Below, in pieces: positions 5,269-33,158 of a stretch of DNA of 46,717 nt. The translations under genes were made by a program, and so were the position numbers. The stretch's first letter is position 1, and each line of letters opens with the position of its first letter. The notes below the pieces were generated by a model. The model was given only the letters and a program-made list of their open reading frames with translations, did no database searches and was not told the origin of the DNA. Where the stretch lies: assembly GCA_038145135.1 (NCBI GenBank), contig JAYQPD010000004.1, forward strand, positions 1 to 46,717, read 5' to 3'. The DNA comes from a bacterium (GTDB lineage Bacteria > Patescibacteriota > Minisyncoccia > Phycocordibacterales > UBA918).

Positions 5269-5311
5269 GGCATTTAAAGTCAAAAAGTAGAACTCAAACG
5301 CTATCACCCTG

Positions 5312-7925: not shown

Positions 7926-7983
7926 TGTGTATAGGCGCCGCCTTTTGAGGACTGTCCTATGCGAAAATAGAAGGGTAATGGGA

Positions 7984-14166: not shown

Positions 14167-14169
14167 CGT

Positions 14170-15201: not shown

Positions 15202-16853
15202 CCATACGATCACCCATCAAATACTTTTCGTACGTCCTCATACTGTTTGCGGTCCTGTTTCTAGTATGGACTGTTTCGCTTCCTCTTGCCCTTGCACAGG
15301 AGCGCCAGTCGCTCTCGGTGACCCCGCCCTTTGCGCAGATGTCACTTACACGAAGTGGTGCGTTTAAGAGCTACGTGAAGATCATCAACCCAAACAGTTT
15401 TCCGCTTACTGTCTACGTGACGCCAGTCAACTTCGCAACAGCAGATGAAGCTGGGCATCCAAAATTCATTCCGCTCATTGATGAAGAGGCCGACAAAGGA
15501 ACGTTCGCCGGGTGGATCAAGGTGACGAGCGAGCCGATCACTATTGCTCCGGAAACCTCAAAAGAAGTCGATTACACGATCACAGTACCTGAAGACGCGT
15601 CGCCCGGAGGGCACTTCGCTGCACTTCTGATCGGCACACAGCCACCCAAGATCGACGGTGAAGCCGCAGCCCTCAAAACATCACAGGTGGTGACTGCGCT
15701 CCTTATGGCACGCGTTGAGGGAGAGGTGGTAGAGGCGGGGAGTATTCGAGAGTTTTCAGTCAGCCACTCCTTTGCGGGAACGCCACGTGCTGATTTTTCA
15801 CTGAGGTTTGAAAACACCGGTAATGTGTACTTACAACCGCAGGGCGATATTACGGTCTTCAATATGTGGGGCACAGAGCGCGGATATATCCCAGTCAATC
15901 AAAAGACCAACTTTGGAAACGTTCTCCCGAACAGTATCAGAAAGTTTGAATTTTCATGGGAAGGAGAACCGTCCCTCACCGACATAGGAAGGTATAAGGC
16001 AGTCGCGAGCTTGGGATTTGGTGAGAATGGAAGACAGTCGGTCGGTCGGATCGTATATTTTTGGGTCATACCAGTGAAGGCGACATTGATCACACTCTGT
16101 GTGCTCGTTCTGTTCGCACTTTTCATTACGTTCTCCATCCGCCTCTACATTCGCCATGCACTTAAGCTTGCTGGCTACGAGGAACGTGTGCAACGTTCAC
16201 AACCCCCTCTAGATAGACGATCGCGTCCCGAACCAACCCGCACAGTCCGACATGAAGCACGTATCACCAGAACGGTCATGACTGCACCACTTCGTGAAGG
16301 TGTGCTCGATCTTCGTAAGGCGGTGAGAAAACAGGATGGTGTAGTGAGTGAAGCACGCGGCATCTTGGGATTTGTGTCGGAGTATCGTATGTTCTTGGCT
16401 GCACTCTGTATCGCACTACTCGGGATCGCACTCATAGTCTGGTATGTCCTTGATGCGCGGAGTGCGAATAGGCCATACGAGATCACTGTGAAGAATGATG
16501 GCGGTGCGACCACTATCACCTCAGAAGAGATGGAGTCTGCTCGAAGTACGAATGAGCTTCAGAGAACTAAGACTGAGGTCAAGTCTGACGTTGCCATTGT
16601 GAACGCTAGTGGACTATCTGGTACAGCGTCCCAGGTAGTCGAACGTTTGAAACAGTCTGGATATAGCGTCACAGATGTATCGACCGATGCTGATGGAAGG
16701 GACTCAAGTGTGATCATTTTCAACGCTGGCGTGGCTCGCGAGGCGACCGCACTCTCGGAGTTGCTTGACGGCATGATACTCTCAGCACGTCCACAGGGGG
16801 AAGAAACCGATCCAAGTATACTGATTATCATCGGTCGCGACCGTGCGAATTGA
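15198..16853 (+). CDS. DUF916/DUF3324 (CscA)-like surface protein fused, past two TM helices, to a LytR_C-like domain
   Basis: LSVTPPFAQMSL..FKSYVKIINPNSFPLTVYVTPVNFAT..ITIAPETSKEVDYTITVPEDASPGGHFAALLIG. DUF3324-like ..NVLPNSIRKFEFSW..IGRYKAVASL. TM helix LITLCVLVLFALFITFSI and a second TM helix FLAALCIALLGIALIVWYV. LytR_C-like VAIVNASGLSGTASQVVERLKQSGYSV..VIIFNAG..ILIIIGRD. ATGA overlap with the previous CDS. Confidence 0.7.
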   Translation: MTIRSPIKYFSYVLILFAVLFLVWTVSLPLALAQERQSLSVTPPFAQMSLTRSGAFKSYVKIINPNSFPLTVYVTPVNFATADEAGHPKFIPLIDEEADKGTFAGWIKVTSEPITIAPETSKEVDYTITVPEDASPGGHFAALLIGTQPPKIDGEAAALKTSQVVTALLMARVEGEVVEAGSIREFSVSHSFAGTPRADFSLRFENTGNVYLQPQGDITVFNMWGTERGYIPVNQKTNFGNVLPNSIRKFEFSWEGEPSLTDIGRYKAVASLGFGENGRQSVGRIVYFWVIPVKATLITLCVLVLFALFITFSIRLYIRHALKLAGYEERVQRSQPPLDRRSRPEPTRTVRHEARITRTVMTAPLREGVLDLRKAVRKQDGVVSEARGILGFVSEYRMFLAALCIALLGIALIVWYVLDARSANRPYEITVKNDGGATTITSEEMESARSTNELQRTKTEVKSDVAIVNASGLSGTASQVVERLKQSGYSVTDVSTDADGRDSSVIIFNAGVAREATALSELLDGMILSARPQGEETDPSILIIIGRDRAN

Positions 16854-19219: not shown

Positions 19220-19231
19220 AACACCCAAAAA

Positions 19232-19269
19232 GTGATAAAAAACCCTTATCGTCAAGGGTTTTTTATCAC
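19232..19269. terminator. Strong, bidirectional-looking intrinsic terminator after gdh
   Basis: Perfect 16-bp stem gtgataaaaaaccctt / aagggttttttatcac with loop atcgtc. The arms themselves carry the A-run and T-run. Confidence 0.85.
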
Positions 19270-19314
19270 CAGCGTGACATTTTCAGTGGGGGTGCAGATG
19301 ATACTATATATGTG

Positions 19315-22300
19315 ATGAGGGAAAAGTATCTGCGGATACATCTTTTTTTGGTGATATTCTTTCTTTTCCTGTGGGTTGTTGTTCCCGGATCCTCTACCTT
19401 CGCTGCGATCAACGAACAGATCAATTTTTACGGAACACTTAAAGATACAAGTGAAAATCCACTCACCGGCACCTACGATATGGTGTTTCGTTTTTATGAT
19501 GCACCAACCGGCGGAACACTTCTCGATACGAGTACACACACGAGCGGCAATGGCAACCCGGTAACGGTAACCAATGGCGAGTTTTCGGTCGTACTTGGTT
19601 CGGGGACCGGCAATGCGCTTGATGGTATTGATTTTTCGAGTAACTCAATCTACGTAGGCCTTACGATCGGCGCTGATTCAGAGATGTCACCCCGTGAGCG
19701 TCTCGCTGCTGTGCCGTATGCGTTCAATAGCGATAAGGTGGACGGATACGACGCAGTCGATCTCCTTCGTGGAAATGCGAGTGGTACTATCTCAGCTTCA
19801 GAAACCAGTACGCTCCTTACGATCACACAAGCAGGTTCAGGCGACATCCTGAACTTGATCGATGGCTCGACAGAAGTATTCACTGTTTTGGATGGTGGCA
19901 ACGTTGGTATCGGTTCATCTTCACCATCTACACGCTTGAGTGTAGCTGGAAGTGCATACATCAACGGCGGTCTCACCATCACAAACATCACCGCGACCGG
20001 CACCTCAGCACTCACCACTCTTACCTCAACCTACGCATCGACCACAAACCTCACCGTCGCTGGAACGCTCTACGATTCCGCAAATTCAGCCGGCACCAAC
20101 GGCTACGTCCTCCAAACGACTGGTAGTGGTGTCGCCTGGGTCGCGACCTCTTCACTAGGACTTGGGGGCGCAGGAGCATCTACCTACCTCGCTCTCACTG
20201 ACACCCCAGGTTCCTTCACTTCATATTCGATCCCGTATACCAACAGCGGCGCAACAGCACTTCTCCACTCATCAACTTTCGTCTTCGATGGCACCCGTCT
20301 TGGTGTAGGAACGAGTACACCATACTGGACCGCTCAAGTCGCCTCAGCGACCACACCCTATCTCGCCCTCACCAACATGGCAGGCAGTTCAGGCAATAAA
20401 CACTGGCTCCTCTCTAACAGTGGTGACGGCATCTTCCGTATCGGAAGGGCTACTGATGCACTCACCAGTACCTCAACTGCACTTCTCATGGATCTGGTTG
20501 GCCACAATTTCATGGTGGATACTCAATCGGGTACTACATCGAGCACCTTCAATATCGGAATTGGATACCAAGCTCTTTTGAGTAATGTCTCAGGTCACAA
20601 TAACGTTGCTGTCGGACAACAAGTATTAAAACTTAACTCAACAGGATTTGATAACGTGGGAGTTGGTGACACTGTCTTGTGGAAGAATACCAGCGGAAGT
20701 AACAATGTTGCTGTCGGTCTGACTTCACTCATCAATAACACAACAGGAAACTTCAATACAGCACTCGGCGCGTACTCAGGTATCAATATCACAACTGGTC
20801 ATTCGAATGTGATCATTGGCGATAATTCGTACGGTGAGAATCTAACTACTGGCTCGGGTAATATTGGACTCGGCACACATACATACTTCCCAAGCGCGAC
20901 CTCTGACCTCCAGCTCGTTATCGGCAACCTCATTTACGGTACACTCCCCGCAACGTCAACATCCTTCCAACTTCCAACGACTGGGGCGGTAGGAATTGCA
21001 TCAAGCTCGCCGCGCGCTCTGCTTGCTGTGCATGCAAACTACGGCTACGCTGAAAGCTCACTTTTTGAGATAGGTTCGTCGACAGCTTCTGCTACCACAA
21101 CCCTTTTTAGGATCTCCAACACCGGTGTCATTACCTCGAACGCAGCTGCAACGTCAACATTTGCGGCGGGTATCAATGCGACCGGTCTTCAAAGTACCTA
21201 CCTCCGTCTTTCGGGAGCCCTCTACGATTCCGCAAATTCAGCCGGCACCAACGGCTACGTCCTTCAAACGACTGGTAGCGGTGTCACCTGGGTCGCCACC
21301 TCATCACTTGGCTTCGGGTCAGGGAACGGTACCGTGAATACTGGTCTCACCGGATACTTCGCGTACTATACTGCTGACGGTACTACGGTAGATGACCAGG
21401 CCACCCTATACCTCTCAGGTTCTAACATAGGCATCGGTACCACAACCCCGACCTCACTCCTCACGGTATATGGAGACGTTGACGCCAGTGCACCAAACGC
21501 CGGGTATAAGATCCAAGGACAACGAGTGCTCTACGCCTCGAGTACCAATCTCTCAACAGTGGTAGGTATTAGTGCGGGATCACTTTTGGATACAAGTGGG
21601 TTACGCAATACTGCAGTGGGATACGAAGCACTCACTGCTGCAACTTCTTCCGACAACAATACTGCGATCGGCTATCAGTCGATGTACTCAAACACCTCAG
21701 GGTTCTACAACCTTGCTGCAGGTGCGTGGTCACTTTACTCGAATACAGGCGGAAGGTGGAATACGGCACTTGGCGCCGGATCATTGACCAACAACAACAC
21801 TGGTGACGACAATGTTGCTGTTGGCGCCGACGCACTTTCCTATAGCACAACTGGCGTTGGCAATACAGGTGTGGGATCGGGCGCTTTATTTAAAAATATT
21901 TCTGCTACTAGTTCTGTTGCGGTCGGTTACTACGCCGGGTTCGGTTCTGGCAGTTCATACTCTAATCAGGGAGGTACCTTTATTGGTTACAAGTCAGGCT
22001 ACAATTCAAGCGACAACTCAGACTACAACACCTTCCTCGGGTACCAGAGTGGATACAACGTCACTACTGGCTCAAACAACATCCTGATCGGTGCTGCTAC
22101 TTCATCAACAGCAATTGCGAATCTCACGACTGGTTCACAGAATATTCTGATCGGCAACAACATTTCACTCCCATCTGCAACCGCAAACGGTCAGCTCAAT
22201 ATTGGAAATCTGATATACGGCACTGGTCTCGATGGAGTTGGCTCAACGCTTTCTACAGGAAACATAGGCATCGGTACCACTTCACCACATGCTCGACTCT

Positions 22301-25300
22301 CGGTTGACACCACATCACTTGGTACGACGAGTGCGTTCCTTGTTGGATCATCGACAGGAACACAGTTTGACGTTGATGGAGAAGGGTTTGTAGGCATCAA
22401 TGAAAAGGCTCAGGATTATCTCTCGATCAATGCAAATCAGGGTGCGGGCGGTATTTACCTACACGGCTCAACCAACGGATCTATCTATAACGTCATAGAA
22501 AACACTAACACTGGCTCAAGTGCGTTCGGAGAATTCCTCACCTACAACGACCGAACGTCATACTTTAAGGCAGGTATTGGGTCGAGTGGCACCACCGCTG
22601 GTGTCTACGCTGACCGTGCCTACCTTTATGCTGGTAACGGCAAATCCGCTGGTCTATCTCTCATTGCTGCCTCATCATCCGCTGACATCCGCTTCTTCAC
22701 AGGAGGGGAGACTGCAGGTGATGAACAGATGCGCCTCACCTCTGCTGGATATCTTGGACTTGGAACCACTACACCAGAGACCTTTATGTCGATCGCGGGA
22801 AATGGTACTACGGCCACACATCTTGAACTGGTAAATACTAATACATCAGGGTGGTCTGAACTTGATTTTGGGAATACGACCGCAACGCACGGGCTTGCGG
22901 GAATATACCTCAATGGTGCGAGTGAAAGTAGTGGTGGTGGCACTAATTCATTCAATATTTTCACCAATGGTGCATACCCACTCATACTCTGGACCAACAA
23001 TCAGGATCGTCTACACATCACGTCAGGAGGTCAAATAGGCATCGGCACCACCTCACCGCATGCTCGACTCTCTATCGACACAACATCACTTGGCACCACA
23101 AGTGCGTTCCTCATTGGGTCATCAACAGGTACCCAGTTCGTGGTTACTAATAGTGGAGATGTCGGTATTGGCACAAGAACACCACAACATTACGATGGTT
23201 ACACTTCACTCACTATTGGTGGAAGCGGATATGGCAACATTGATCTCTTAAATAATGATGGTACACGAGGATTGAGTGCGTATGTTGGCAAAAATACAGG
23301 AAAGAACTACACAGAATTCGATTTCTATAAGGCAGCTGGAACAATAGATGGCTACTTTGGCTATTACGAACAAGATGGTATCTATCTAGCTGGCAGCTCT
23401 GTCCCTGTCCATCTCGCCAATGGAGACACTCCACGATTAACACTCGCAACGAGCAGCAAGATCGGTATTGGTACCACCACTCCTAACTGGGAACTTCAGA
23501 TCGCGACCGCCACCACCCCATACCTCGCCCTCACCAACATGGCAGGTGCCACCGACAAGAAACACTGGCTCCTTTCTAACAGTGGGGATGGCATCTTTAG
23601 GATAGGCACATCGAACGATGCGCTCACCAGTACATCTACAAAGGCGCTCATTGATTCAGCTTTAGGCAATGTTCATTTAGGATTCCAAACAGGCACATCG
23701 ACAGGCACTAACAACGTTGCGATAGGGGACTATGCACTCTATGGCAACACCACTGGTTTTGCCAATATTGCACTCGGGTTTGAATCGCTCCTCGTTAATA
23801 CTACAGGCTACAGCAACATATCTCTTGGGTATCGTGCGCTTAATGAAAGTACCACTGGGTCAAATAACAATGGAATTGGTTCAAGTGCTCTGGGTAGTAA
23901 CACGACTGGGTTCGACAATAACGCAATTGGTGAAGCTGCAATGGAGTTCAATACAACAGGCTCTTTCAATAATGGATTTGGATATCAAGCCCTCTGGGGT
24001 AACACCTCTGGTTCAAGTAATATCGGTATTGGACGATGGAGTGGTGCGAACAACACAACTGGTATCGGTAACATTGCGTTTGGTGAGCGTACCTACTTCC
24101 CCAGCGCAACAGGGAATAGACAGCTCAATATCGGAAATTTGATCTGGGGAAGCCTTCCTGCGACCACCACCGCCTTTGCATATCCGACCAGTGGCGCTAT
24201 CGGTATCGGCTCAACCTCACCAAATGCGCTGCTTTCGATCCACTCACATAGCTCATCCTTTGGTGACCTCCTCAGCATTGGTTCATCGACGAGTGGTGCG
24301 GCGACCTCAACCTACTTCGTGGTGAAGAGTGATGGGAAGGTGGGGATAGGCACTACTTCTCCCAACGCGGTACTCTCGATCGATCCAGGTCAGAACTATT
24401 CAGCATTTGAGATCGGCTCATCGTCGGCTACCACCTTCCAGGTCGGTCGCCTTCAAGGTGCAACATATGTTGGTATTGGTGAGTCTGCACAAGATTATCT
24501 ATCCATCAACGCATCAAGAGGGAGTGGGGGTATCTATCTCCATGGATCAGCGAACTCAAGTATTTATGTACAAGTTGAAAATACAAGTTCCAACTCAGCA
24601 GCGTACGCTGAGTACTATGCAGTGAACGATACAGGCACTCAAGCAACATTCGGCATAGGCTCAAGTAATGCTACTGCTGGTGTGTACGCAGGTCGTGGAT
24701 ATCTATGGTCTAACGTTGCTAAGTCAGCCGGTCTTTCCCTCGTCGCTGCCTCTACCTCAGCAGACATCCGCTTCTTCACAGGAGGGGAGACTGCGGGTGA
24801 TGAGCAGATGCGTATCACCTCAGCAGGTCTTCTCGGCGTAGGAACCACCAGTCCTATTGCAGGGTTCGCGGTTCAAAATGACGGTTCAAGCGGCTGGGAG
24901 GCGTTCTTCAAGTCAACACAAGCTGGTCCTTCTTCTGTCGATATTGGGCTCCAGAGTTCTGGTAGTCAGGTCTGGGATCTCTATGCAGACACCTCAGGAT
25001 ATGTCGGCTTCTATGATGTGTCGTACAACACAACGCCCTTCTCGATCGCTAATAATGCACCCGATTATTCATTCATCATCCAGAGTACCGGGAAGGTCGG
25101 TATCGGCACCTCATCACCAGCGCAAGAACTTTCCGTGGCAGGTGACATCTACTTCACTGGCGGTCTCTATGACAGTTCGGGTAGTATTGGTGCGTCATCA
25201 ACTATCCTCATGAGTACGGGAAGTGGTGCACGCTGGTTTGCTACCTCATCACTTGGCTTCGGTTCAGGCAGCGGCACTGTGGACAGCGGTTCGCTTGGTC

Positions 25301-28300
25301 AGCTCGCATACTACGCAGCTAACGGTACTACGGTCTCAGGTTCATCAAATCTCTTTCTCAATACTTCCAATACCACTTTTGGTATCGGCACCACGTCCCC
25401 ACACGCTCGCCTCTCGGTTGACACCACCTCACTCGGGACGACGAGTGCCTTCACTGTCGGTTCATCAACCAAGACATTATTTAAGATTGCTAATAACGGA
25501 AATGTGGGGATCGGTACCACCTCGCCGACCGAACTCTTGCACGTAGCGCTCAGTAGTGAAGATACTGATGTTGTGGGACTATTTGAGGCTGATAATTCCT
25601 GGAACGCTTCATATATCCAGTTCAAAAATAATGGATCGAGCGTAGGAGGAGAATATATTGGTAGTGCTGGAGCGACACTTGGTCTGTGGACGAACAATAC
25701 AGAGCGATTGACTGTAGGAGCGACTGGCCTCGTTGGTGTCGGTTCAACTTCACCAAACGCACTCCTCTCTGTGCACGCAAACAGCGGTAGCGTTGGCGAC
25801 CTCTTTAACATAGGATCATCAACAAGTGGTGCGGCGACCTCTACCTACTTTGTGGTGAAGAGTAATGGTCGTGTGGGTATAGGTACTACTACTCCTGCTT
25901 CACCGCTCGATCTCTACTCAATCGATACTTCGTTCAACAACGCGGCAGATACTCGGAACACGATAAATGCATTGACATTTATCACACCAAGTTCGAATGA
26001 AACGGTTACGACCAACTACACCACACGTCGCCGAAACGCCGGTATGTTCCAGTCGATCATCCCTGCATCAAACTCAAAAACGGTTTCATCAATTAATGGA
26101 GTGTTTGGCTACTCAGAGAATAGCAGTACCCAGAGTGTTGGTGCGCTTGAAGGTGCTATCGGATTCGCATATAACAAAGCAAACGCAACAGTTCATTTAG
26201 TGACCGGTATCGCTGCATCGGCTGAAACCGATGCAGGGATTATTGACCAGTTGATAGGTTTAGATTCATGGACAGGTGCGTATGGTGGTACGGTCAATAA
26301 GAACTACGGAGCCTACATCTCTTTAGATAATACTGGGTCAACCATTGGAAATCGCTACGGTCTCTTTTTGGCTACACCGATTGGAACTGCAACCAACACC
26401 GATTACGGCATCTACCAGGAAGGTACGCAGGACAACTATTTGGGTGGCAAACTCGGTATCGGCACCACCTCACCCCAAGATATTTTTGTCGTTGATGATT
26501 CTTCAACCTGGTATTCATACCCAACACTGCGTGTAAGTAGTAGCTCAGCAGGATATTCTGAAGTCGGCCTCAGATTGCAAACTCATGATGGTGAGAATGG
26601 ATACATTATTTATGAAACTCAAGGCGGTGGACTCAATCTTTGGAGTTCTGAGACCAAACGAGCTATGACCTTAAAGAGTTCGGGCAACATCGGCATCGGC
26701 ACCACCTCACCGCATGCTCGACTCTCTATCGACACAACATCACTTGGCACCACAAGTGCGTTCCTCATTGGGTCATCAACAGGTACCCAGTTCGTGGTTA
26801 CTAATAGTGGAGATGTCGGTATTGGCACAAGAACACCACAACATTACGATGGTTACACTTCACTCACTATTGGTGGAAGCGGATATGGCAACATTGATCT
26901 CTTAAATAATGATGGTACACGAGGATTGAGTGCGTATGTTGGCAAAAATACAGGAAAGAACTACACAGAATTCGATTTCTATAAGGCAGCTGGAACAATA
27001 GATGGCTACTTTGGCTATTACGAACAAGATGGTATCTATCTAGCTGGCAGCTCTGTCCCTGTCCATCTCGCCAATGGAGACACTCCACGATTAACACTCG
27101 CAACGAGCAGCAAGATCGGTATTGGTACCACCACTCCTAACTGGGAACTTCAGATCGCGACCGCCACCACCCCATACCTCGCCCTCACCAACATGGCAGG
27201 TGGTGACTACCAAAAGCACTGGCTCCTCTCTAACTCAGGTGATGGTGCCTTCAGGATCGGTACTGCTTCAAACAGTCTCACCTCGACGACCACTGAGCTC
27301 CTTATCGACAGCGCACTCGCGAACTTCAGAGTGGGCAGTACCATATCTGGTACTTCATATGGTACCTATAACGCAAGTATCGGTTTTGATGCGCTCACCT
27401 CGGTCACGTCAGGAAGTAACAACATTGCACTTGGTCAGACCGCACTCAATAAGACAACTTCAGGCTCGTACAACGTGGGTCTAGGATATGCTGCGCTCTA
27501 TAACAACACTGCTGGTCAGTACAACACAGCACTTGGATACAATGCACTCAATGCCACTACGTTTGGTGACAACAACATTGGCATCGGTAACTCTGCACTC
27601 AGCGCGAACACTAGCGGAGCTAACAACATCAGTATCGGCAAGATCAGTGGTGCAAACGTAACAACGGGCTGGGGCAACATCGCTCTTGGTGAACGCTCGT
27701 ACTTCCCCAGCGCAACAGGGAATAGACAGCTCAACATAGGAAACCTGATCTACGGTTCTCTCCCTGCAACCACAACCGCCTTTGCGTATCCGACCAGTGG
27801 TGCGCTCGGTATCGGCTCAACCTCACCAACCGCACTGCTTTCACTCCATGCCAATACAGGCGCGAGTTACACAAATCTCTTTACCGTTGGTTCATCCACA
27901 GCTTCTGCTACTACCACACTCTTCAATGTAGCAAGCAATGGTGGAGTGGGTATCGGCACGACCTCGTCTTCCGACTTCCTCACTATTGATGCTGGCACTG
28001 GTGTATCGGGAGGACTCTCGATATGGGGAAATGTGAACAATTCTGTATATTCTTACCTTTACAACGCCAATAGTGGTTCAAATGCCTACGCAGACTTCTG
28101 GTCAGAGAACAACAGAGGGTCACTTGCTGACTTTGGTATTGGTAGTTCAGGGACCACCGCAGGCGTCTATAACGACCGAGCGTATCTATACGGAGGAGGA
28201 GGTTTCTCAAACGGTGTCTCAATCGTTGCAGCATCAACATCAGCTGACATCCGCTTCTTCACAGGAGGGCAGACTGCAGGTGATGAGCAGATGCGCCTTA

Positions 28301-30801
28301 CCTCTTCTGGATATCTTGGACTTGGAACCACTACACCAGAGACCTTTATGTCGATCGCGGGAAATGGTACTACAGCCACACACCTTGAACTGGTAAATAC
28401 TAATGCATCAGGGTGGTCTGAACTTGATTTTGGGAATACGACCGCAACGCACGGGCTTGCGGGAATATACCTCAATGGTGCGAGTGAAAGCAGTGGTGGT
28501 GGCGCTAATTCATTCAATATTTTCACCAATGGTGCATACCCACTCATACTCTGGACTAACAATCAGGATCGTTTACACATCACGTCAGGAGGTCAAATTG
28601 GCATCGGCACTACCTCACCACACGCACGTCTCTCGGTTGACACCACCTCACTCGGTACGACGAGTGCGTTCCTCATAGGGTCATCAACAGGTACCCAGTT
28701 CGTGGTGACGAACAGTGGTAATGTGGGGATTGGTACGTCATCGCCAGACAATATTTTTAGTGTTGTCTCCCCCTACACATACCCTCAATTCGTATCTACC
28801 AATGAATGGGCTGGTATAACGATAAAAACTCTAGCTGCGGGTGGAGGTAGTGAGCTGATCCTTAGAGGACCGTCTGGTTCATACGATATCTACTACAACG
28901 AGACTGATCAGTCATTACGATTCTGGAATGGTGTTACAGACAAGATGACGCTTACCAATGGCGGCAAACTCGGCATCGGTACCACCACACCAAACTGGCA
29001 ACTCCAAGTCGCCTCAGCCACCACCCCATACGTCGCCCTCACCAACATGGCAGGTGCGAGCGGAAAGAAACACTGGCTTCTCTCTAATAGTGGTGACGGC
29101 ATCTTCCGTATCGGCCAGGCCACTGACGCCCTCACGAGCACCTCAACTGCATTCCTCATAAACACGACAAATAGCAATTTCTCTGTCGGTGCACAAGCTG
29201 GTACGTCAACTGGCTCCTATAACGCCGCTATTGGCTACCAAGCGCTCTACTCAAACACTGCCGGCACCAACAACGTCGCGATCGGGCAGGTGGCACTCTA
29301 CTCAAACTCCAGTGGAGACTACAACACCGCGATCGGCAACCGAGCACTTCTCACCAACACTTCTGGTGCAAGCAACCTCGCTATTGGTGAAGATGCTCTC
29401 TATGCAAATACTACTGGATCGTACAACCTTGGACTTGGCTGGCAAGCCCTGACCTCAAATACTACAGGTCGATACAATGTTGGTTTTGGCTATAACACAC
29501 TTGCTAACAACACGACCGGACAAGAAAACGCTGCTATGGGCTCACACGCACTCCGCAGTGTATCAACCGGTTCATACAACACTGGCCTTGGCTACTCTGC
29601 AGGGTACAACCTCTCCGGTCACGCAAACACCGTGCTTGGCAAGAACGCTGGGTACAACCTCACCACATCGCAGGGAAGTGTGGCCCTAGGTTCTGATACG
29701 TACTTCCCAAGTGCAACCACCAACCGCCAGCTCAACATAGGAAACCTGCTCTACGGTTCTCTCCCTGCAACTTCAACTGCCTTTGCGTACCCAACCAGTG
29801 GTGCCATTGGTATCGGCTCCACCTCACCAACGGCACTGCTTTCGATTCACTCAAACAACAGTGCGATGGGGAACCTCTTTAACATCGGTTCATCGACGAG
29901 TGGTGCGGCGACCAGTACCTACTTTATGGTGAAAAGCACTGGCCAAGTAGGTATAGGCACTACATCTCCGAGTGCTCAGCTTACTACCACCGGTACCGTG
30001 CAGTTTGCCGGCATCACTGGCGGCGCACTCTCGACGGACGCAAATGGTAACGTGACCGCATCGTCTGATGAACGACTGAAGCACATTCAGGGTGAGTTTA
30101 CCCGTGGACTGGATGCGCTTATGGGTATCACTCCTATTATATATAAGTGGCGTGACGAGACTGGGTACGATACTGAACACGAATACACTGGCTTCTCAGC
30201 TCAGAATATTCAAGAATTCATCCCTGAGGCGGTAATGACGAATAAGAGTGGCTTCCTCTCGCTCTCTGATCGTCCAATACTTGCAGCAGTCATCAATGCG
30301 ATCAAAGAAATGCGTAAGCGATTTGTAACGGACGAACTCTGTGTAGGCGACACCTGTATCACAGAAGCTGAGCTCAAAGACCTTTTGGATTCTAGAAACA
30401 TTCAACCATCATCAAGCAGTTCACACTCTAACGCTTCAAACACAACAACTACTACGACCACTTCTACATCGGGCACTCAAACGACAGGTAGCGGGACCAC
30501 TACATCAAGTGTGTCTAACACTGATGGTACGGCATCGAGCACAACTGGCGATACTATCTCAGAAGTAGGTACCACCGGAAGTACGACACAGAACGATACC
30601 ACTACGGATACGGTAAGTGGGGACGTCGGAGCTACCGGTACAGCTGAAACACCAACTGATCCTGTAGTCGATGAAACTATCACCCCGGTCTCTGACCCAA
30701 TTAAGGACACCACTCCACCTGTTGAGGACATGCCGCCATCAACGGATACGACTACTACAGATCTCGGAGCTGAAGTGATTAGTGATGTGCCAGGTGTGTG
30801 A
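19315..30801 (+). CDS. Giant 3828-aa fibre/adhesin-like protein with tail-fibre-type repeats and an S74 intramolecular-chaperone domain near the C-terminus
   Basis: Signal peptide LFLVIFFLFLWVVVPGSSTFA. Conserved fibre N-domain (INFYGTLKD..GTYDMVFRFYDAPTGG..PRERLAAVPYAFNSDKVDG). Many G(I/V)GT(T/S)SP turns. Five blocks of about 17-aa N.A.G..AL..NT.G repeats (~20548-20940, 21601-22220, 23710-24150, 27367-27755, 29218-29757). S74-like SSDERLKHIQ...GITPIIYKWRDE...GFSAQNIQEFIPEAV...ILAAVINAIKEMRKR at 30061-30400. Thr/Ser-rich tail. Confidence 0.85.
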   Translation: MREKYLRIHLFLVIFFLFLWVVVPGSSTFAAINEQINFYGTLKDTSENPLTGTYDMVFRFYDAPTGGTLLDTSTHTSGNGNPVTVTNGEFSVVLGSGTGNALDGIDFSSNSIYVGLTIGADSEMSPRERLAAVPYAFNSDKVDGYDAVDLLRGNASGTISASETSTLLTITQAGSGDILNLIDGSTEVFTVLDGGNVGIGSSSPSTRLSVAGSAYINGGLTITNITATGTSALTTLTSTYASTTNLTVAGTLYDSANSAGTNGYVLQTTGSGVAWVATSSLGLGGAGASTYLALTDTPGSFTSYSIPYTNSGATALLHSSTFVFDGTRLGVGTSTPYWTAQVASATTPYLALTNMAGSSGNKHWLLSNSGDGIFRIGRATDALTSTSTALLMDLVGHNFMVDTQSGTTSSTFNIGIGYQALLSNVSGHNNVAVGQQVLKLNSTGFDNVGVGDTVLWKNTSGSNNVAVGLTSLINNTTGNFNTALGAYSGINITTGHSNVIIGDNSYGENLTTGSGNIGLGTHTYFPSATSDLQLVIGNLIYGTLPATSTSFQLPTTGAVGIASSSPRALLAVHANYGYAESSLFEIGSSTASATTTLFRISNTGVITSNAAATSTFAAGINATGLQSTYLRLSGALYDSANSAGTNGYVLQTTGSGVTWVATSSLGFGSGNGTVNTGLTGYFAYYTADGTTVDDQATLYLSGSNIGIGTTTPTSLLTVYGDVDASAPNAGYKIQGQRVLYASSTNLSTVVGISAGSLLDTSGLRNTAVGYEALTAATSSDNNTAIGYQSMYSNTSGFYNLAAGAWSLYSNTGGRWNTALGAGSLTNNNTGDDNVAVGADALSYSTTGVGNTGVGSGALFKNISATSSVAVGYYAGFGSGSSYSNQGGTFIGYKSGYNSSDNSDYNTFLGYQSGYNVTTGSNNILIGAATSSTAIANLTTGSQNILIGNNISLPSATANGQLNIGNLIYGTGLDGVGSTLSTGNIGIGTTSPHARLSVDTTSLGTTSAFLVGSSTGTQFDVDGEGFVGINEKAQDYLSINANQGAGGIYLHGSTNGSIYNVIENTNTGSSAFGEFLTYNDRTSYFKAGIGSSGTTAGVYADRAYLYAGNGKSAGLSLIAASSSADIRFFTGGETAGDEQMRLTSAGYLGLGTTTPETFMSIAGNGTTATHLELVNTNTSGWSELDFGNTTATHGLAGIYLNGASESSGGGTNSFNIFTNGAYPLILWTNNQDRLHITSGGQIGIGTTSPHARLSIDTTSLGTTSAFLIGSSTGTQFVVTNSGDVGIGTRTPQHYDGYTSLTIGGSGYGNIDLLNNDGTRGLSAYVGKNTGKNYTEFDFYKAAGTIDGYFGYYEQDGIYLAGSSVPVHLANGDTPRLTLATSSKIGIGTTTPNWELQIATATTPYLALTNMAGATDKKHWLLSNSGDGIFRIGTSNDALTSTSTKALIDSALGNVHLGFQTGTSTGTNNVAIGDYALYGNTTGFANIALGFESLLVNTTGYSNISLGYRALNESTTGSNNNGIGSSALGSNTTGFDNNAIGEAAMEFNTTGSFNNGFGYQALWGNTSGSSNIGIGRWSGANNTTGIGNIAFGERTYFPSATGNRQLNIGNLIWGSLPATTTAFAYPTSGAIGIGSTSPNALLSIHSHSSSFGDLLSIGSSTSGAATSTYFVVKSDGKVGIGTTSPNAVLSIDPGQNYSAFEIGSSSATTFQVGRLQGATYVGIGESAQDYLSINASRGSGGIYLHGSANSSIYVQVENTSSNSAAYAEYYAVNDTGTQATFGIGSSNATAGVYAGRGYLWSNVAKSAGLSLVAASTSADIRFFTGGETAGDEQMRITSAGLLGVGTTSPIAGFAVQNDGSSGWEAFFKSTQAGPSSVDIGLQSSGSQVWDLYADTSGYVGFYDVSYNTTPFSIANNAPDYSFIIQSTGKVGIGTSSPAQELSVAGDIYFTGGLYDSSGSIGASSTILMSTGSGARWFATSSLGFGSGSGTVDSGSLGQLAYYAANGTTVSGSSNLFLNTSNTTFGIGTTSPHARLSVDTTSLGTTSAFTVGSSTKTLFKIANNGNVGIGTTSPTELLHVALSSEDTDVVGLFEADNSWNASYIQFKNNGSSVGGEYIGSAGATLGLWTNNTERLTVGATGLVGVGSTSPNALLSVHANSGSVGDLFNIGSSTSGAATSTYFVVKSNGRVGIGTTTPASPLDLYSIDTSFNNAADTRNTINALTFITPSSNETVTTNYTTRRRNAGMFQSIIPASNSKTVSSINGVFGYSENSSTQSVGALEGAIGFAYNKANATVHLVTGIAASAETDAGIIDQLIGLDSWTGAYGGTVNKNYGAYISLDNTGSTIGNRYGLFLATPIGTATNTDYGIYQEGTQDNYLGGKLGIGTTSPQDIFVVDDSSTWYSYPTLRVSSSSAGYSEVGLRLQTHDGENGYIIYETQGGGLNLWSSETKRAMTLKSSGNIGIGTTSPHARLSIDTTSLGTTSAFLIGSSTGTQFVVTNSGDVGIGTRTPQHYDGYTSLTIGGSGYGNIDLLNNDGTRGLSAYVGKNTGKNYTEFDFYKAAGTIDGYFGYYEQDGIYLAGSSVPVHLANGDTPRLTLATSSKIGIGTTTPNWELQIATATTPYLALTNMAGGDYQKHWLLSNSGDGAFRIGTASNSLTSTTTELLIDSALANFRVGSTISGTSYGTYNASIGFDALTSVTSGSNNIALGQTALNKTTSGSYNVGLGYAALYNNTAGQYNTALGYNALNATTFGDNNIGIGNSALSANTSGANNISIGKISGANVTTGWGNIALGERSYFPSATGNRQLNIGNLIYGSLPATTTAFAYPTSGALGIGSTSPTALLSLHANTGASYTNLFTVGSSTASATTTLFNVASNGGVGIGTTSSSDFLTIDAGTGVSGGLSIWGNVNNSVYSYLYNANSGSNAYADFWSENNRGSLADFGIGSSGTTAGVYNDRAYLYGGGGFSNGVSIVAASTSADIRFFTGGQTAGDEQMRLTSSGYLGLGTTTPETFMSIAGNGTTATHLELVNTNASGWSELDFGNTTATHGLAGIYLNGASESSGGGANSFNIFTNGAYPLILWTNNQDRLHITSGGQIGIGTTSPHARLSVDTTSLGTTSAFLIGSSTGTQFVVTNSGNVGIGTSSPDNIFSVVSPYTYPQFVSTNEWAGITIKTLAAGGGSELILRGPSGSYDIYYNETDQSLRFWNGVTDKMTLTNGGKLGIGTTTPNWQLQVASATTPYVALTNMAGASGKKHWLLSNSGDGIFRIGQATDALTSTSTAFLINTTNSNFSVGAQAGTSTGSYNAAIGYQALYSNTAGTNNVAIGQVALYSNSSGDYNTAIGNRALLTNTSGASNLAIGEDALYANTTGSYNLGLGWQALTSNTTGRYNVGFGYNTLANNTTGQENAAMGSHALRSVSTGSYNTGLGYSAGYNLSGHANTVLGKNAGYNLTTSQGSVALGSDTYFPSATTNRQLNIGNLLYGSLPATSTAFAYPTSGAIGIGSTSPTALLSIHSNNSAMGNLFNIGSSTSGAATSTYFMVKSTGQVGIGTTSPSAQLTTTGTVQFAGITGGALSTDANGNVTASSDERLKHIQGEFTRGLDALMGITPIIYKWRDETGYDTEHEYTGFSAQNIQEFIPEAVMTNKSGFLSLSDRPILAAVINAIKEMRKRFVTDELCVGDTCITEAELKDLLDSRNIQPSSSSSHSNASNTTTTTTTSTSGTQTTGSGTTTSSVSNTDGTASSTTGDTISEVGTTGSTTQNDTTTDTVSGDVGATGTAETPTDPVVDETITPVSDPIKDTTPPVEDMPPSTDTTTTDLGAEVISDVPGV
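22681..23037 (+). repeat. Module A of a second, ~97% identical intragenic repeat pair (partner at 28243-28599)
   Basis: Hand alignment gave 12 mismatches in about 365 nt. Offset 5562 bp, in frame. It encodes ADIRFFTGG.TAGDEQMRLTS.GYLGLGTTTPETFMSIAGNGTTATHLELVNTN.. Confidence 0.85.
23038..23548 (+). repeat. Copy 1 of a 511-bp perfect direct repeat inside the giant gene
   Basis: Base-by-base reading found it identical to 26692-27202. The offset is 3654 bp (1218 codons, in frame). It encodes GIGTTSPHARLSIDTTSLG...PYLALTNMAG. Confidence 0.9.
26692..27202 (+). repeat. Copy 2 of the 511-bp perfect direct repeat inside the giant gene
   Basis: Identical to 23038-23548. The identical shadow ORFs in the track (23060..23251 = 26714..26905; 23213..23449 = 26867..27103) are a by-product. 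Confidence 0.9.
28243..28599 (+). repeat. Module A' (partner of 22681-23037)
   Basis: See the partner entry. Here the module is not followed by the 511-bp repeat, so the arrangement is mosaic. Confidence 0.85.
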
Positions 30802-33158
30802 TGAAATGGTCAAACCACAGAAGAACAATACGCGTACTCATGACCTTGTTTGTGGGTGTGTTTCTGGTGTTTAGTCCACAGGTGAGCTTTGCAGACCTCT
30901 CAAGTGAGAATTTCACAGTTGGAAACCCAGTGATCACTCCCATTGGTATCACGAGCACTTCTACATCTGCCAGTTACCAACTTACTCCTGAGTATGGAAA
31001 TGTGTACCACTATGATGTTGCCACTACTCCAACCACTACGGGATCATCTGGTGGCGGTGGGGGGAGTACTACTAACAAACCACCACCCGAGGTGGTCTTA
31101 GCACCATCACCTGACACATCAGTTCTCATCGGTCCCAAAAACGTACTCATAGGCGAGCAAGTAGTGCTTGTGCTTCTCCTTAAGGACGAGAATGGTGTAA
31201 CCATTTCTGCAGAGGAACAGGATGTGGTGTTTACTGTGACTGGCGCAAATGATGGCGCCCCGGTGAGTAACTACCTGGGAGGTGGTATGTACCGTGCGAC
31301 GTACAGTGCTTCACATATAGGTGTAGATCAAGTCACAGTTCGACTTAATGGTGTAAAGATCACACAGGATTCTGACGGTGTAAGTGACGGAACACTTAAC
31401 ATAACCATCTCAGCAGTAACAGAGACCGTCACACCACCCGACACCACAGTTCCGAGCGAAGTGACGGATGACGGTCAGGACGTTGCCACTGACGATGGTA
31501 GTGATGATCAGAGCGGGACAGAAATTGATCCGTACCTTGAGTCAGGCATCACGGCATCTTGCCATCCGATCTTTACGTGGGATGGCAACAGTTCTGTACT
31601 GATTTCCCGTAGAACAGACAATTCATCTCCAACGATCGTGGCACGAATTGGCCCCAAAATGCCGTGGTTCATTGAGGTGCATGATGTACGTGGTGCTCCT
31701 CATGTCATCTATCACTTTAGTTTTTCAAACGGGCATAATGAAGAGGTGTGGTTCTCAAGATCTGACTTTGATGGTTGTGTTCAGGATGCAGGCGGGCTGG
31801 TGAGAGAAGACATAGACAATGACGGGAATGACGAATACTTTGTGGACGGGATCTATCTTGATGGAGACGGAACAACAGTACCTGTTGCCACATCGCCCTT
31901 TGGCTTACTGCTCGATTCACGAAAAACGGGACTCTATGACCTGTTTTGGAACCCGAAGCAGGGTACCTCAGAAGTCATTGAAGCGGGCGATAGGTTCTTT
32001 GTGTCCGATGCATCTATAAGTAGAACTCAAGAGTATGCTCGCATCACTGAATTGTTGTATACGGTGTCACTTGATGACAATGCTGGAGCCTTTGTCGTGC
32101 CCGTTGTTTTAGCGACACAGTTGACCACGTTTAACTCGGCTCCACTCCCGAGAGAAAAACTAACCTTACGAACGGTTGCCAACACGGTGGGGAGAATCGT
32201 CGTGCCACCAATTGTGGGCTTAGTGAGTACAGTTATGGACCACAAAACAGCTGTCGGCGTAGTCGGCGCAACTGGTGGTGTAATGATCTCACTCTTCTCA
32301 CTTGCCCGTGTACCATTTTCTTTTAGCAACTTTGGTAATCTCTTTGCACGCGGTTGGACTGGATTCATTGGGCTGTTCTTCTTTCGACGAAGACATCGTG
32401 CGTGGGGTACTGTATACGACAGTGTGACCAAGGCACCAGTCGATCCTGCGTACATTGAGCTATTTACGCCTGAAGGTAAAAAAGTTGCTGAGGCCATCAC
32501 TGACCTCGACGGACGTTACGGGTTCCTCGTCCCAGAAGGTACGTACGTCATGAACGTTATGAAAGCACACTACCAGTTTCCTTCACAGAAGACGGTATTT
32601 GCTGGTCATGATGTGATCTACAACAACTTGTATCTAGGTGGAACCTTTCAAGTGGGTGGAGTGGTGGCTCATGATGTGCCGGTCGACCCGATCGCATTTG
32701 ACTGGAACCAATGGGAAAAGATGCGTACCAACCAAACCCTTTTCATCCATCGTTTTGACCCCCTCATCGCACAGGTTACTATAGTGTTATTTTATTTTGG
32801 TTTTGCTTCAGTGCTCTGGCAACTTTACGTCACACCAGGAACGATCCTTTACCTCCTTACTGGTCTGTATACCGTACTTCTACTCATCCGATTCTTCGTA
32901 GGGAAACCGCTGCTCTACGGCACACTGAAAAGAAGTACTGTACCGCTTGCGTTCGCTATAGTTCGCGTTTTCCGTGGCGAGATGGAAGTTACAAATAAGG
33001 TGAGTGATATGTATGGAAGGTATGTGGCCCTCGTCTCACCCGGGACCTATACCATAACGATCGAGGAGCGCGTGAGTGAGAATGAGTACCGTCCCGCGCT
33101 TACTCAGGTAGTGACGACAAAAGATGGCGTGATAGATGCAAATTTCGCCATTCGCTAA
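30801..33158 (+). CDS. Polytopic membrane protein with an N-terminal Ig-like (Big_1-like) domain and two carboxypeptidase-regulatory-like domains
   Basis: Signal peptide VLMTLFVGVFLVFSPQVSFA. Ig-like ..VVFTVTGANDGAPVSNYLGGGMYRATYSASHIGVDQVTVRLNG. Several TM helices after about aa 470. CarboxypepD_reg-like WGTVYDSVTKAPVDPAYIELFTPEGKKVAEAITDLDGRYGFLVPEGTYVMNV and ..IVRVFRGEMEVTNKVSDMYGRYVALVSPGTYTITI. The ATG overlaps the giant gene's stop (TGATG); an alternative GTG lies at 30798. Confidence 0.7.
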   Translation: MKWSNHRRTIRVLMTLFVGVFLVFSPQVSFADLSSENFTVGNPVITPIGITSTSTSASYQLTPEYGNVYHYDVATTPTTTGSSGGGGGSTTNKPPPEVVLAPSPDTSVLIGPKNVLIGEQVVLVLLLKDENGVTISAEEQDVVFTVTGANDGAPVSNYLGGGMYRATYSASHIGVDQVTVRLNGVKITQDSDGVSDGTLNITISAVTETVTPPDTTVPSEVTDDGQDVATDDGSDDQSGTEIDPYLESGITASCHPIFTWDGNSSVLISRRTDNSSPTIVARIGPKMPWFIEVHDVRGAPHVIYHFSFSNGHNEEVWFSRSDFDGCVQDAGGLVREDIDNDGNDEYFVDGIYLDGDGTTVPVATSPFGLLLDSRKTGLYDLFWNPKQGTSEVIEAGDRFFVSDASISRTQEYARITELLYTVSLDDNAGAFVVPVVLATQLTTFNSAPLPREKLTLRTVANTVGRIVVPPIVGLVSTVMDHKTAVGVVGATGGVMISLFSLARVPFSFSNFGNLFARGWTGFIGLFFFRRRHRAWGTVYDSVTKAPVDPAYIELFTPEGKKVAEAITDLDGRYGFLVPEGTYVMNVMKAHYQFPSQKTVFAGHDVIYNNLYLGGTFQVGGVVAHDVPVDPIAFDWNQWEKMRTNQTLFIHRFDPLIAQVTIVLFYFGFASVLWQLYVTPGTILYLLTGLYTVLLLIRFFVGKPLLYGTLKRSTVPLAFAIVRVFRGEMEVTNKVSDMYGRYVALVSPGTYTITIEERVSENEYRPALTQVVTTKDGVIDANFAIR

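Follow-up and report, generated by a model that had tools for sequence, protein, structure and literature searches.

The closest described counterparts of the protein analyzed here are the fibers of the superfamily of mosaic adhesive trimers (MAT) in Bdellovibrio bacteriovorus, which includes an S74 group, e.g., Bd3182 (Caulton et al., Nat Microbiol 2024, PMC10769870). For these fibers, experiments have established display at the cell surface, trimers in crystal structures, and S74 autocleavage (PMC10769870); S74 chemistry in cellular surface fibers has therefore been described and demonstrated since 2024, and the lack of precedent that an earlier note on this DNA had implied does not hold. 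In the literature that we searched, type IV pili are the sole experimentally supported attachment device of Patescibacteria outside the Saccharibacteria, and we found no paper connecting S74 or MAT fibers with Patescibacteria. The window analyzed here, a whole contig of 46,717 nt, contains a gene that we consider likely to encode a chromosomal, Sec-exported fiber of the MAT or phage-tail-fiber type in a small-genome, Kaiserbacteria-like Patescibacterium (table 1). The reading of the product as a cellular, trimeric, self-processing surface fiber is supported, and it gains direct precedent because every sequence hallmark of the Bdellovibrio MAT fibers recurs in this protein.

Table 1. Features of the fiber gene, its upstream region, and the gene that follows it, in positions of the window
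Feature	Position (nt)	Strand	Residues	Remarks
Hairpin, 18-bp stem between A-run and T-run	19231..19270	.		Between gdh stop (19219) and fiber gene
Weak sigma-70-like promoter match	19274..19302	+		GTGACA-17-GATGAT; consensus match only; 1 found versus 0.6 expected
Fiber gene	19315..30801	+	1-3828	ATG at 19315; alternative GTG start at 19312; no internal stop
Sec-type signal peptide	19315..19404	+	1-30	Predicted cleavage after TFA; n-h-c layout
Conserved MAT-type N-terminal beta-sandwich domain (about 118 aa)	19405..19758	+	31-148	Profiles, hhalign, AF2
Fiber shaft	19759..30048	+	149-3578	Mosaic of repeated modules linked by 20-25 capping loops
17-aa repeat block 1	20551..20949	+	413-545	
17-aa repeat block 2	21553..22209	+	747-965	
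511-nt perfect direct repeat, first copy	23038..23548	+		
17-aa repeat block 3	23653..24159	+	1447-1615	
511-nt perfect direct repeat, second copy	26692..27202	+		Offset 3654 nt, in frame (1218 codons)
17-aa repeat block 4	27370..27759	+	2686-2815	
17-aa repeat block 5	29221..29769	+	3303-3485	Within terminal module
Peptidase_S74 intramolecular chaperone/autoprotease domain	30049..30321	+	3579-3669	Pfam, local HMM, profile, AF2
Predicted nucleophile	30064-30066	+	S3584	Motif S3584-D-E-R-L-K3589
Predicted base	30079-30081	+	K3589	Five residues after S3584
C-terminal tail	30322..30798	+	3670-3828	Short hairpin, then acidic Ser/Thr-rich low-complexity region
785-aa multi-pass membrane protein	30801..33158	+		Start overlaps fiber stop (TGATG)

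The ORF listing and translation agree with the single 11.5-kb ORF of the earlier note, an uninterrupted frame of 3828 codons plus stop. Of the two flanking genes named there, gdh is the direct upstream neighbor of the fiber gene, whereas rarA does not adjoin it but is the second gene downstream, with the gene for a 785-aa membrane protein between them. The hairpin that separates gdh from the fiber gene is likely the terminator of gdh, judged from its sequence, so the fiber gene would begin its own transcription unit.

The signal peptide (MREKYLRIHLFLVIFFLFLWVVVPGSSTFA, with A as the first residue after the predicted cleavage site) is the sole hydrophobic segment of the 3828-aa protein and is directly followed by the N-domain. 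This order of leader and domain recurs in 46/46 N-domain homologs examined, and the 41 that are N-terminally complete all have a full signal peptide, which bears out both the signal peptide and the conserved fiber N-domain that the earlier note had read from the DNA alone. An AF2 monomer model of the N-domain, which is presumed to be the cell-proximal, anchoring end of the fiber, is an all-beta sandwich (pLDDT 84.5) with no convincing neighbor among PDB and viral structures, where it yields generic Ig-like matches only; the MAT N-domain is without a significant PDB homolog in the published work too (PMC10769870). The N-domain profile reaches three Bdellovibrio ORFs (L063, L032, and L051) at their N-termini, and comparison with Bdellovibrio N-domains by hhalign gives 92.2% (E 5.9e-7, 105 columns), a remote similarity that emerged after three rounds of profile iteration against a small database; the ORFs compared resemble MATs in their architecture and are not among the 21 named HD100 proteins. 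The N-domain family is large (17,522 cluster representatives), many of its members are multi-kiloresidue proteins, and the named close relatives are from Patescibacteria. Among the 145 closest representatives, 70 have an S74 domain and 34 reach 1500 aa or more, the longest being 3874 aa; several close fiber relatives fall in the range of 2000-3900 aa. The family-wide N-domain alignment is strongly divergent, too much so for pattern scanning.

The shaft is a mosaic of recurring modules. Its capping loops are of the type (N/K)(V/I)GIGT(T/S)xPxxxL; the pattern G[IV]G[TS][TSR][ST]P occurs 25 times (0.003 expected from composition-preserving shuffles), and the capping-loop motif VGIG/N-small-x-x-P-x-x-x-L has 20 matches (0.01 in shuffles). 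Four "HWLLSNSGDG" collar modules (aa 327-420, 1381-1471, 2599-2693, and 3215-3310) and three SINA..GGIYLHG..IRFFTGG modules (aa ~1020-1200, 1715-1880, and 2876-3060) lie in it, as do three copies of the LYDS..S.G motif (aa 252, 636, and 1951), two of which are accompanied by GYVLQTTGSG. The 17-aa repeats form five blocks, with starts near aa 413, 747, 1447, 2686, and 3303, that are evident from lag-17 identity autocorrelation (0.24-0.33) and from 41 occurrences of N.[AGV][ILMVF]G (2.5 in shuffles). The GIGTTSP-type segments, the recurrent LYDS motif, and the five repeat blocks that the earlier note had listed were thus all recovered by counting. Shaft modules match PHROGs with E values of 1e-102 to 1e-25, and alignments with tail-spike or "auto-processing" proteins of the SPO1-like kind cover 84-93% of the terminal module (aa 3215-3702); these similarities suggest that the shaft modules are of phage-fiber ancestry. 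In the PDB, Bd2133 (2.2e-8) and Bd3182 (5e-3) are the sole significant matches to shaft aa 1000-1300, with one further match at E 0.17; a single-sequence PDB search with the collar-plus-repeat module gave no match, and neither did a search of NCBIfam.

Downstream of the shaft, where the earlier note had located a peptidase-S74-type domain at 30061-30400, PF13884 matches aa 3584-3640 (nt 30064-30234, inside that span) well above its curated threshold (E 3.9e-10, 40.3 bits versus a cut-off of 22, model positions 1-57/58), and a local HMM widens the domain to aa 3579-3669. An S74 profile searched against the PDB retrieves the MyRF ICA domain (1.7e-15), Bd2133 (1.5e-13), the tail fiber 8jov (3.9e-13), and also 6f45. 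Alignment of the Ser/Lys dyad, which the earlier note had singled out as a point to check, places S3584 and K3589 on SDERLK in 8jov and SDRRIKK in the phage S16 long tail fiber (6f45), and 38 homologs show no variation at S3584, D3585, L3588, or K3589. The S74 part of an AF2 monomer model of the C-terminus has pLDDT >90; Foldseek matches this model only to 7dc3 (E 8e-5, prob 1.0) and 3gw6 (E 9e-3, prob 0.8-0.93), with TM-scores of 0.3-0.5, modest values that reflect the comparison of a single-chain model with chains taken from an intertwined trimer. A single-sequence PDB search with the C-terminus returned low-complexity noise only, the S74 matches emerging with the profile. The short hairpin of the C-terminal tail holds both of the only two Cys residues of the protein.

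Based on this layout, we propose that the signal peptide would direct export and that the C-terminal S74 chaperone, by homology to endoNF, T5 pb1, and Bd3182, would register three chains that fold N-wards into an intertwined beta shaft. The Ser3584/Lys3589 dyad would then cut each chain at S3584, so that chaperone and tail would come off together as a predicted 244-aa piece (D3585-V3828), leaving a mature fiber of 3554 aa. Scaled at the 0.6-0.72 Å per residue of known fibers, the mature fiber would be roughly 0.2-0.26 µm long, about a cell diameter. The N-terminal beta-sandwich may, more speculatively, hold the fiber on the surface of the producer, possibly via the translationally coupled membrane protein. 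Patescibacteria have no outer membrane, so an anchor of the type used by the Bdellovibrio N-domain may be absent here; the fiber itself has no sortase signal, lipobox, or transmembrane anchor, which makes simple release possible. Binding to surface glycans or proteins on a partner or host cell would fall to the distal tip together with four internal copies of the tip-like collar/17-aa-repeat module, a step that we base on the Bdellovibrio precedent and on the episymbiotic lifestyle of cultivated Patescibacteria; to our knowledge, many Paceibacteria have no demonstrated host.

Given that strong phage relatives exist for every shaft module and for the S74 domain, and that S74 domains are reported from the tail fibers of extracellular contractile injection systems (eCIS) too, the gene might be thought to encode part of a virion or other particle (a prophage or its remnant, a tailocin, or an eCIS tail fiber) rather than a cell-surface fiber. 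We regard this as highly improbable. The 46.7-kb contig carries housekeeping or envelope genes throughout, all on one strand and with uniform GC; Pfam and PHROGs reveal no capsid, portal, terminase, tube, sheath, baseplate, lysis, or integrase gene on it, and Rfam and tRNA scans of it are empty. The statement of the earlier note that phage structural, lysis, and integration genes are missing nearby consequently extends to the whole contig, and its reading of the gene as cellular is strengthened by synteny with Kaiserbacteria genome GCA_020428945.1, whose homolog is likewise huge. The contig's UvrB shares 75-76% identity with proteins from Kaiserbacteria and Paceibacterota, and close homologs of the fiber in three other loci (L001, L086, and L087) likewise lie among cellular genes; judged by gene content and synteny, the contig is cellular and Kaiserbacteria-like. 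A Sec signal peptide is present here and in the complete homologs examined, and we know of none in virion fibers, which are assembled in the cytoplasm. Among the 2.9 million contigs of IMG/VR, one close relative of the N-domain was found, on a plasmid- or ICE-like contig.

Two other readings accept a cellular gene and differ over its length or its function. In one, the ORF is real and its length is an assembly artifact, the 3654-nt cassette between the 511-nt perfect repeats being a duplication, a collapse, or a join of strain variants. The 511-nt exact internal repeat makes this worth weighing, since it leaves the number of cassettes and the fiber length uncorroborated; other internal repeats are 80-99% identical, two independent short-read (Logan) assemblies that carry the identical gdh come to an end at the fiber gene or 783 nt into it, and a run of N breaks the ortholog in a further locus (L004). 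We nevertheless find an artifact improbable, because the frame is intact over 11.5 kb with the repeat offset in frame, unique segments between the repeats (e.g., aa 2221-2340, which have no paralog) need a place, and relatives of 2200-3874 aa occur in independent assemblies; the order A-R-B...C-R-D would be the simplest path that uses all segments. In the other reading, the fiber is not mainly an adhesin but an enzyme-bearing spike (a tailspike-like glycan depolymerase attacking a host envelope), a coat element with a structural or protective role, or a phage decoy. Many S74 proteins are depolymerases, e.g., endoNF, beta-helices of the kind in which tailspikes bear their catalytic clefts are the probable fold of the 17-aa-repeat blocks, and Bd3182 is similar to the P22 tailspike (PMC10769870). 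Pfam, NCBIfam, and PDB sequence searches detect no catalytic domain, however, and in the sole cellular family studied experimentally the MAT tips bind, Bd2439 recognizing GlcNAc and Proteus glycans (PMC10769870), so that we consider a mainly nonadhesive role unlikely.

The 785-aa membrane protein encoded directly downstream is a candidate partner or anchor of the surface fiber. Its sequence combines a signal/TM segment with twin S-x-N-F/Y-x-L/V motifs, a CarboxypepD_reg domain, and some 4-5 hydrophobic segments; no Pfam family covers its SxNY module. In L087, an ortholog (45% identity over 300 aa, E 3e-88) lies directly 3' of a 1546-aa fiber gene, and this pair sits in an unrelated neighborhood. 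Signal-peptide proteins with at least two S-x-N-F/Y-x-L motifs follow 7 of 83 complete fiber genes directly and make up 16 of the 3746 other ORFs of those loci (Fisher p = 3e-7), an association that is not universal and that uses a motif definition set after inspection of the data. A tentative extension, which we hold to be doubtful, is that the fiber and the 785-aa protein form a two-part organelle with length variation: the extracellular N-terminal "S-x-N-F/Y-x-L" module of the partner would dock the MAT N-domain, and recombination between the in-frame 511-nt repeats would switch the fiber between 3828 and 2610 aa. If true, this would identify the anchor of a MAT fiber, at least for monoderm Patescibacteria.

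In terms of significance, the fiber is an unusually long member of the MAT family, the phage-derived fibers with which the predator Bdellovibrio recognizes and seizes prey, and not a new class of organelle or machine. It extends the MAT concept to monoderm episymbionts, the locus offers a concrete, testable host-recognition candidate for Paceibacteria, and the downstream membrane protein provides a lead toward a MAT anchor.

Among known systems, YadA-type trimeric autotransporter adhesins were considered and rejected because no Pfam model of that family (YadA_head, Hep_Hag, YadA_anchor) matches at E ≤ 0.1. The YadA-head-like label that the earlier note had attached to the 17-aa repeats is likewise not retained, as these match phage tail-fiber and tail-spike PHROGs instead. 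The likeness is a functional analogy only, in that both are long and repeat-built, the present protein presumably being a trimeric surface fiber as well, and the 17-aa N.A.G repeats recall head repeats; in place of a C-terminal beta-barrel anchor the protein has an S74 domain and a low-complexity tail, its presumed anchor is N-terminal and its polarity thus opposite, and its host lacks an outer membrane. The MYRF ICA domain (7DC3) matches the S74 region best by profile and by structure, with the VGI(G/N)T..P loop ahead of it included, but MYRF is a eukaryotic membrane-bound transcription factor with which the trimerization/self-cleavage module alone is held in common. Phage fibers (endoNF 3GW6, T5 pb1 4UW8, S16 gp37 6F45, SPO1 gp2.52-like) share the S74 fold and the Ser/Lys motif, and the repeat block of the terminal module is about 40% identical to fibers of Pelagibacter and Methylophilales phages; in contrast to them, a signal peptide and MAT-type N-domain replace the virion-attachment domain in the protein described here, which is two to four times as long and has no phage genome around it.

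The comparison with the MAT fibers is the closest. The present fiber differs from them in its Patescibacterium host, a phylum missing from the MAT host table of PMC10769870, in its length (3828 aa versus about 430-1915 aa in the tables of PMC10769870), in having four to five iterated tip-like modules versus one, in being the only MAT gene on its contig versus 21 in HD100, in the translationally coupled membrane protein gene that follows it, and in the remoteness of the N-domain similarity. As a query, a 102-aa fragment of Bd2133 retrieves four Bdellovibrio loci other than HD100 together with 76 loci from many phyla. What the two have in common is a signal peptide followed by a conserved beta-rich N-domain (about 118 aa here, ~130 aa in PMC10769870), a long shaft with (N/L)VGIGTxxPxxxL capping loops in the form given in Supplementary Fig. 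18 of PMC10769870, a C-terminal S74 domain with SDxxxK, chromosomal genes outside prophages, a mosaic family in which S74 and non-S74 tips are both present, and carriage by bacteria that live on other bacteria.

The earlier note had read the fibre protein as the product of one long ORF with a signal peptide, GIGT-type beta-turn segments, five blocks of 17-residue repeats and recurrent LYDS motifs, and each of these elements is borne out. The reading frame is uninterrupted over 3828 codons from its ATG, and the protein begins with a hydrophobic leader, ending TFA↓A, that is its sole hydrophobic segment. Gly, Thr and Ser account for 40% of the residues, and there are only two Cys. The motif G[IV]G[TS][TSR][ST]P occurs 25 times (0.003 in composition-preserving shuffles) and N.[AGV][ILMVF]G 41 times (2.5 in shuffles); the 17-residue periodicity is strict in the five blocks (lag-17 autocorrelation 0.24–0.33), LYDS..S.G is found three times, and a capping-loop motif has 20 matches. 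Chunked self-comparison resolves the protein into a small set of module types, combined as a mosaic in which every type recurs 3–5 times, with unique segments limited to aa 1–120, ~2221–2340 and >3600.

The proposed C-terminal chaperone domain is recovered by the Pfam Peptidase_S74 (S74) model at aa 3584–3640 (40.3 bits, cut-off 22; E 3.9e-10). S3584, D3585, L3588 and K3589 are invariant across 38 aligned homologues, and a profile of the S74 region of this alignment matches the MyRF ICA (1.7e-15), Bdellovibrio Bd2133 (1.5e-13), a tail fibre of solved structure (8jov, 3.9e-13), further Bdellovibrio proteins annotated as "cell wall surface anchor family" and the S16 long tail fibre. The SDERLK of the fibre, with its Ser/Lys dyad, aligns with SDERLK and SDRRIKK of these matches, as the earlier reading requires. 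An AF2 model of the C-terminus (mean pLDDT 80.9; S74 part >90) has structural matches limited to the MyRF ICA (7dc3) and the endoNF chaperone (3gw6). The shaft matches virion structural, tail-spike and tail-fibre families in PHROGs (E 1e-102 to 1e-25), 84–93% of the length of the last super-module (aa 3215–3702) aligns with SPO1-group Bacillus phage proteins annotated as tail-spike or "intramolecular chaperone auto-processing", and its repeat block shares ~40% identity with fibres of Pelagibacter and Methylophilales phages. Given that the internal super-modules are paralogues of the terminal one minus the S74 domain, the fibre looks, by sequence, like a tail-spike tip module iterated 4–5 times. 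In the PDB, shaft aa 1000–1300 match Bd2133 (2.2e-8) and Bd3182 (5e-3) and nothing else significantly, one further match having an E of 0.17.

The N-domain, claimed to be conserved, directly follows the leader in 46/46 homologues, 41 of them complete with a full signal peptide. AF2 models it with confidence as a beta-sandwich (pLDDT 84.5), for which the PDB contains no significant neighbour. The first 340 aa match proteins of Kaiserbacteria, Yonathbacteria, Pacebacteria and further Patescibacteria, plus Zixibacteria and Kiritimatiellia, among them 494–572-aa proteins composed of the N-domain, a short shaft and S74 alone; matches to domain queries are listed up to ~1.75 times the query length (595 aa for a 340-aa and 351 aa for a 201-aa query), so long multi-domain relatives are hidden from such queries. 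A phmmer search of 1.84 billion cluster representatives returns 17,522 N-domain relatives at E ≤ 1e-3, of which 3,167 reach E ≤ 1e-10. Among the closest 145, 70 carry S74 and 34 are at least 1500 aa long, including proteins of 3874, 3270, 3019, 2780 and 2710 aa from independent assemblies. Since such relatives exist and close homologues are surrounded by cellular genes, the fibre is one of the longer members of a large cellular family, most of it unstudied, and is not unique in length. In other phyla and in metagenome contigs, 2–3 N-domain fibre genes can stand in tandem, as would fit a multigene family that diversifies like the 21 Bdellovibrio proteins discussed below.

Features of the window and of related loci, with positions numbered within each locus
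Feature	Locus	Position	Strand	Remark
Cohesin/Big_13 protein	window	1652-3412
674-aa beta-propeller-repeat protein	window	5901-7925
2093-aa secreted protein	window	7885-14166	+
Hairpin	window	19231-19270		18-bp stem, A-run one side, T-run other; between gdh and fibre gene
Fibre ORF	window	start 19312 (GTG) or 19315 (ATG); TGA 30799-30801	+
511-nt direct repeat	window	23038-23548, 26692-27202	+	inside fibre ORF
785-aa membrane protein	window	30801-33158	+	start overlaps fibre stop (TGATG); rarA next
N run, 4704 nt	L004 (Kaiserbacteria)	11394-16097
Orthologue of 785-aa protein	L087	14643-16340
Twin-motif protein downstream of fibre	L001	11698-12309
Twin-motif protein downstream of fibre	L090	16876-17970
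Twin-motif protein downstream of fibre	L092	10110-10922
Twin-motif protein downstream of fibre	L130, L145, L150, L153
317-aa N-domain protein and gp53-like tail-fibre C-domain protein	L085 (IMGVR_UViG_3300050581_000179)	9923-11766
Tandem fibre genes	L027 (Zixibacteria)	4945-9421
Tandem fibre genes	L099, L121, L136, L155, L156, L167

A fibre belonging to a prophage or an extracellular contractile injection system (eCIS) was rejected because Pfam and PHROGs reveal no cluster of phage or contractile-particle structural genes in the window. The reported lack of nearby phage genes thus extends over all 46.7 kb, one entire NCBI contig, where the unassigned ORFs yield no phage-family match, the tRNA and Rfam scans no match, and GC is flat (0.46–0.53). 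All credible genes lie on the + strand and include those for a LytR_C protein, redoxin, AI-2E transporter, PGA_cap, FKBP and a solute-binding protein, gdh, rarA, tgt, uvrB and several large family-less surface proteins. Among 2.9 million IMG/VR contigs, a pattern scan turned up a single N-domain relative (L085); there the gene is followed by one for a gp53-like tail-fibre C-domain protein and neighbored by genes for ParB/RepB, an NlpC/P60 protein, an integrase and two resolvases, so that the contig resembles a plasmid or ICE more than it does a phage. Membership in the trimeric autotransporter adhesins (TAAs) was likewise rejected: the 17-residue repeats described as YadA-like are present, but no YadA-type Pfam match was found for them.

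The relationships of the contig are seen in its UvrB, 75–76% identical to proteins named Candidatus Kaiserbacteria, Parcubacteria and Paceibacterota, and in a Kaiserbacteria MAG (GCA_020428945.1; L004) with the same gene order: a ~2000-aa protein, a 330-aa protein, LytR_C, redoxin, AI-2E, a 156-aa protein, PGA_cap, FKBP and TGT (22–69% amino-acid identity). The L004 fibre homologue, just after tgt, is 53% identical in its N-terminal region and also very long; it is interrupted by an N run, either a scaffold gap or masking, beyond which the locus continues toward the contig end. The next called gene, which extends to the end of the locus, encodes a 437-aa Laminin_G_3 product, a hint that the tip of this relative may be composite or of a non-S74 type. 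Large surface proteins are numerous on the window contig itself. Another secreted giant has ~190-aa internal repeats (YHWRNDD...TC..W.DVG) and no Pfam, NCBIfam or PHROG family; it is 47% identical to the syntenic ~2000-aa protein over 702 aa, all of that homologue that the L004 locus as compared contains, and lies downstream of the beta-propeller-repeat and cohesin/Big_13 proteins.

The 511-nt repeat within the fibre ORF is perfect and in frame (offset 3654 nt), and short-read Logan contigs with identical gdh end at the fibre gene or 783 nt into it, so that the number of cassettes is provisional. We argue that the gene as assembled is essentially right, since its frame is intact, the repeats enclose unique sequence, and relatives elsewhere are just as long. 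The repeats are a potential recombination substrate for deleting or adding a 1218-aa cassette in frame.

Of the flanking genes named earlier, gdh is indeed upstream, but rarA does not adjoin the fibre gene, being second downstream after the gene for the 785-aa membrane protein. The hairpin could terminate transcription from either direction and, as it separates gdh from the fibre gene, the fibre and overlapping membrane-protein genes are probably their own transcription unit. Besides a leader, the 785-aa protein carries twin S-x-N-F/Y-x-L/V motifs, several hydrophobic segments and a CarboxypepD_reg domain. Its L087 orthologue (45% identity over 300 aa, E 3e-88) directly follows a 1546-aa fibre (N-domain 67% identical) in a neighborhood that differs from that of the window. 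In L001, L086/L090, L088, L092 and other loci, the fibre gene is followed by that of a smaller protein which combines a signal peptide and the twin motif with a C-terminal TM. The motifs in downstream proteins come in 2–3 copies ~20 aa apart, and the module has no Pfam family. Under a stricter definition set after seeing the data, twin-motif ORFs lie immediately downstream of 7/83 complete fibre genes versus 16/3746 other ORFs of the same loci (p = 3e-7). The module may be the membrane dock of the fibre. The N-domain of the mosaic adhesive trimers (MATs), a Bdellovibrio surface-fibre family, is without a PDB homologue and its anchor is unknown (PMC10769870); that the 785-aa/twin-motif protein supplies this anchor is a long shot.

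We infer the biochemistry of the fibre at every step from its architecture and homology. It would be exported via Sec, fold as a trimer from C to N on the template of the S74 chaperone, and cleave itself at S3584. Placed at the endoNF position, which we take to apply here, the cut would fall between S3584 and D3585, with a predicted mature chain of 3554 aa and a released fragment of 244 aa. The N-domain would keep the fibre on the producer, and a partner cell would be bound by the tip exposed at the other end, perhaps with help from the internal tip-like modules; alternatively, though less probably, the fibre would be enzymatic (a depolymerase) rather than adhesive. T4 and T5 fibres extend ~0.6 Å per residue. 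Scaled from these and from Bd3182 (~550 Å for ~760 mature residues; PMC10769870), the mature, presumably adhesive fibre would be 0.21–0.26 µm long.

The PDB matches to Bdellovibrio proteins lead to a comparison with the MATs (Caulton et al. 2024, PMC10769870). B. bacteriovorus HD100 has 21 MAT proteins, all with a conserved ~130-aa beta-rich domain directly after the signal peptide; their fibres are trimeric and bear capping loops such as NVGIGTTNPSGILH, and 13 end in an S74 domain with SDxxxK (PMC10769870). Surface display was demonstrated by microscopy, six tips have crystal structures, Bd3182 is cleaved at S782, a cut that S782A blocks, and the Bd2439 ligand is GlcNAc/Proteus glycan (PMC10769870). 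A Bd2133 shaft fragment as query retrieves 80 genomic loci; they span many phyla, and four belong to Bdellovibrio. A clean N-domain profile reaches Bdellovibrio ORFs, at their N-termini, by iterations 3–4, and hhalign of the non-Bdellovibrio N-domain alignment with three Bdellovibrio N-domains (probability 92.2%, E 5.9e-7, 105/117 columns) lines up the signatures I/L-x-Y-Q-G, G-x-F-x-V-x-I/L-G and S-P-x-x-x-I/L-x-x-V-P-Y/F. With these, the capping loops and the shaft matches, the fibre has every MAT feature that sequence can address. Together with the absence of phage genes, this supports the earlier reading of a cellular, trimeric, self-processing surface fibre, of lower novelty than first held, since it belongs to a known MAT/phage-tail-fibre-like kind. 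The literature searched held no paper connecting MAT or S74 fibres with Patescibacteria. What is new is a very long Patescibacterial member: MATs in the published table are ~430–1915 aa long, whereas the window fibre has 3828 aa, and their hosts are Oligoflexia, the PVC group, Alpha-/Deltaproteobacteria, the FCB group and Omnitrophica (PMC10769870), in contrast to the Patescibacterial host here.
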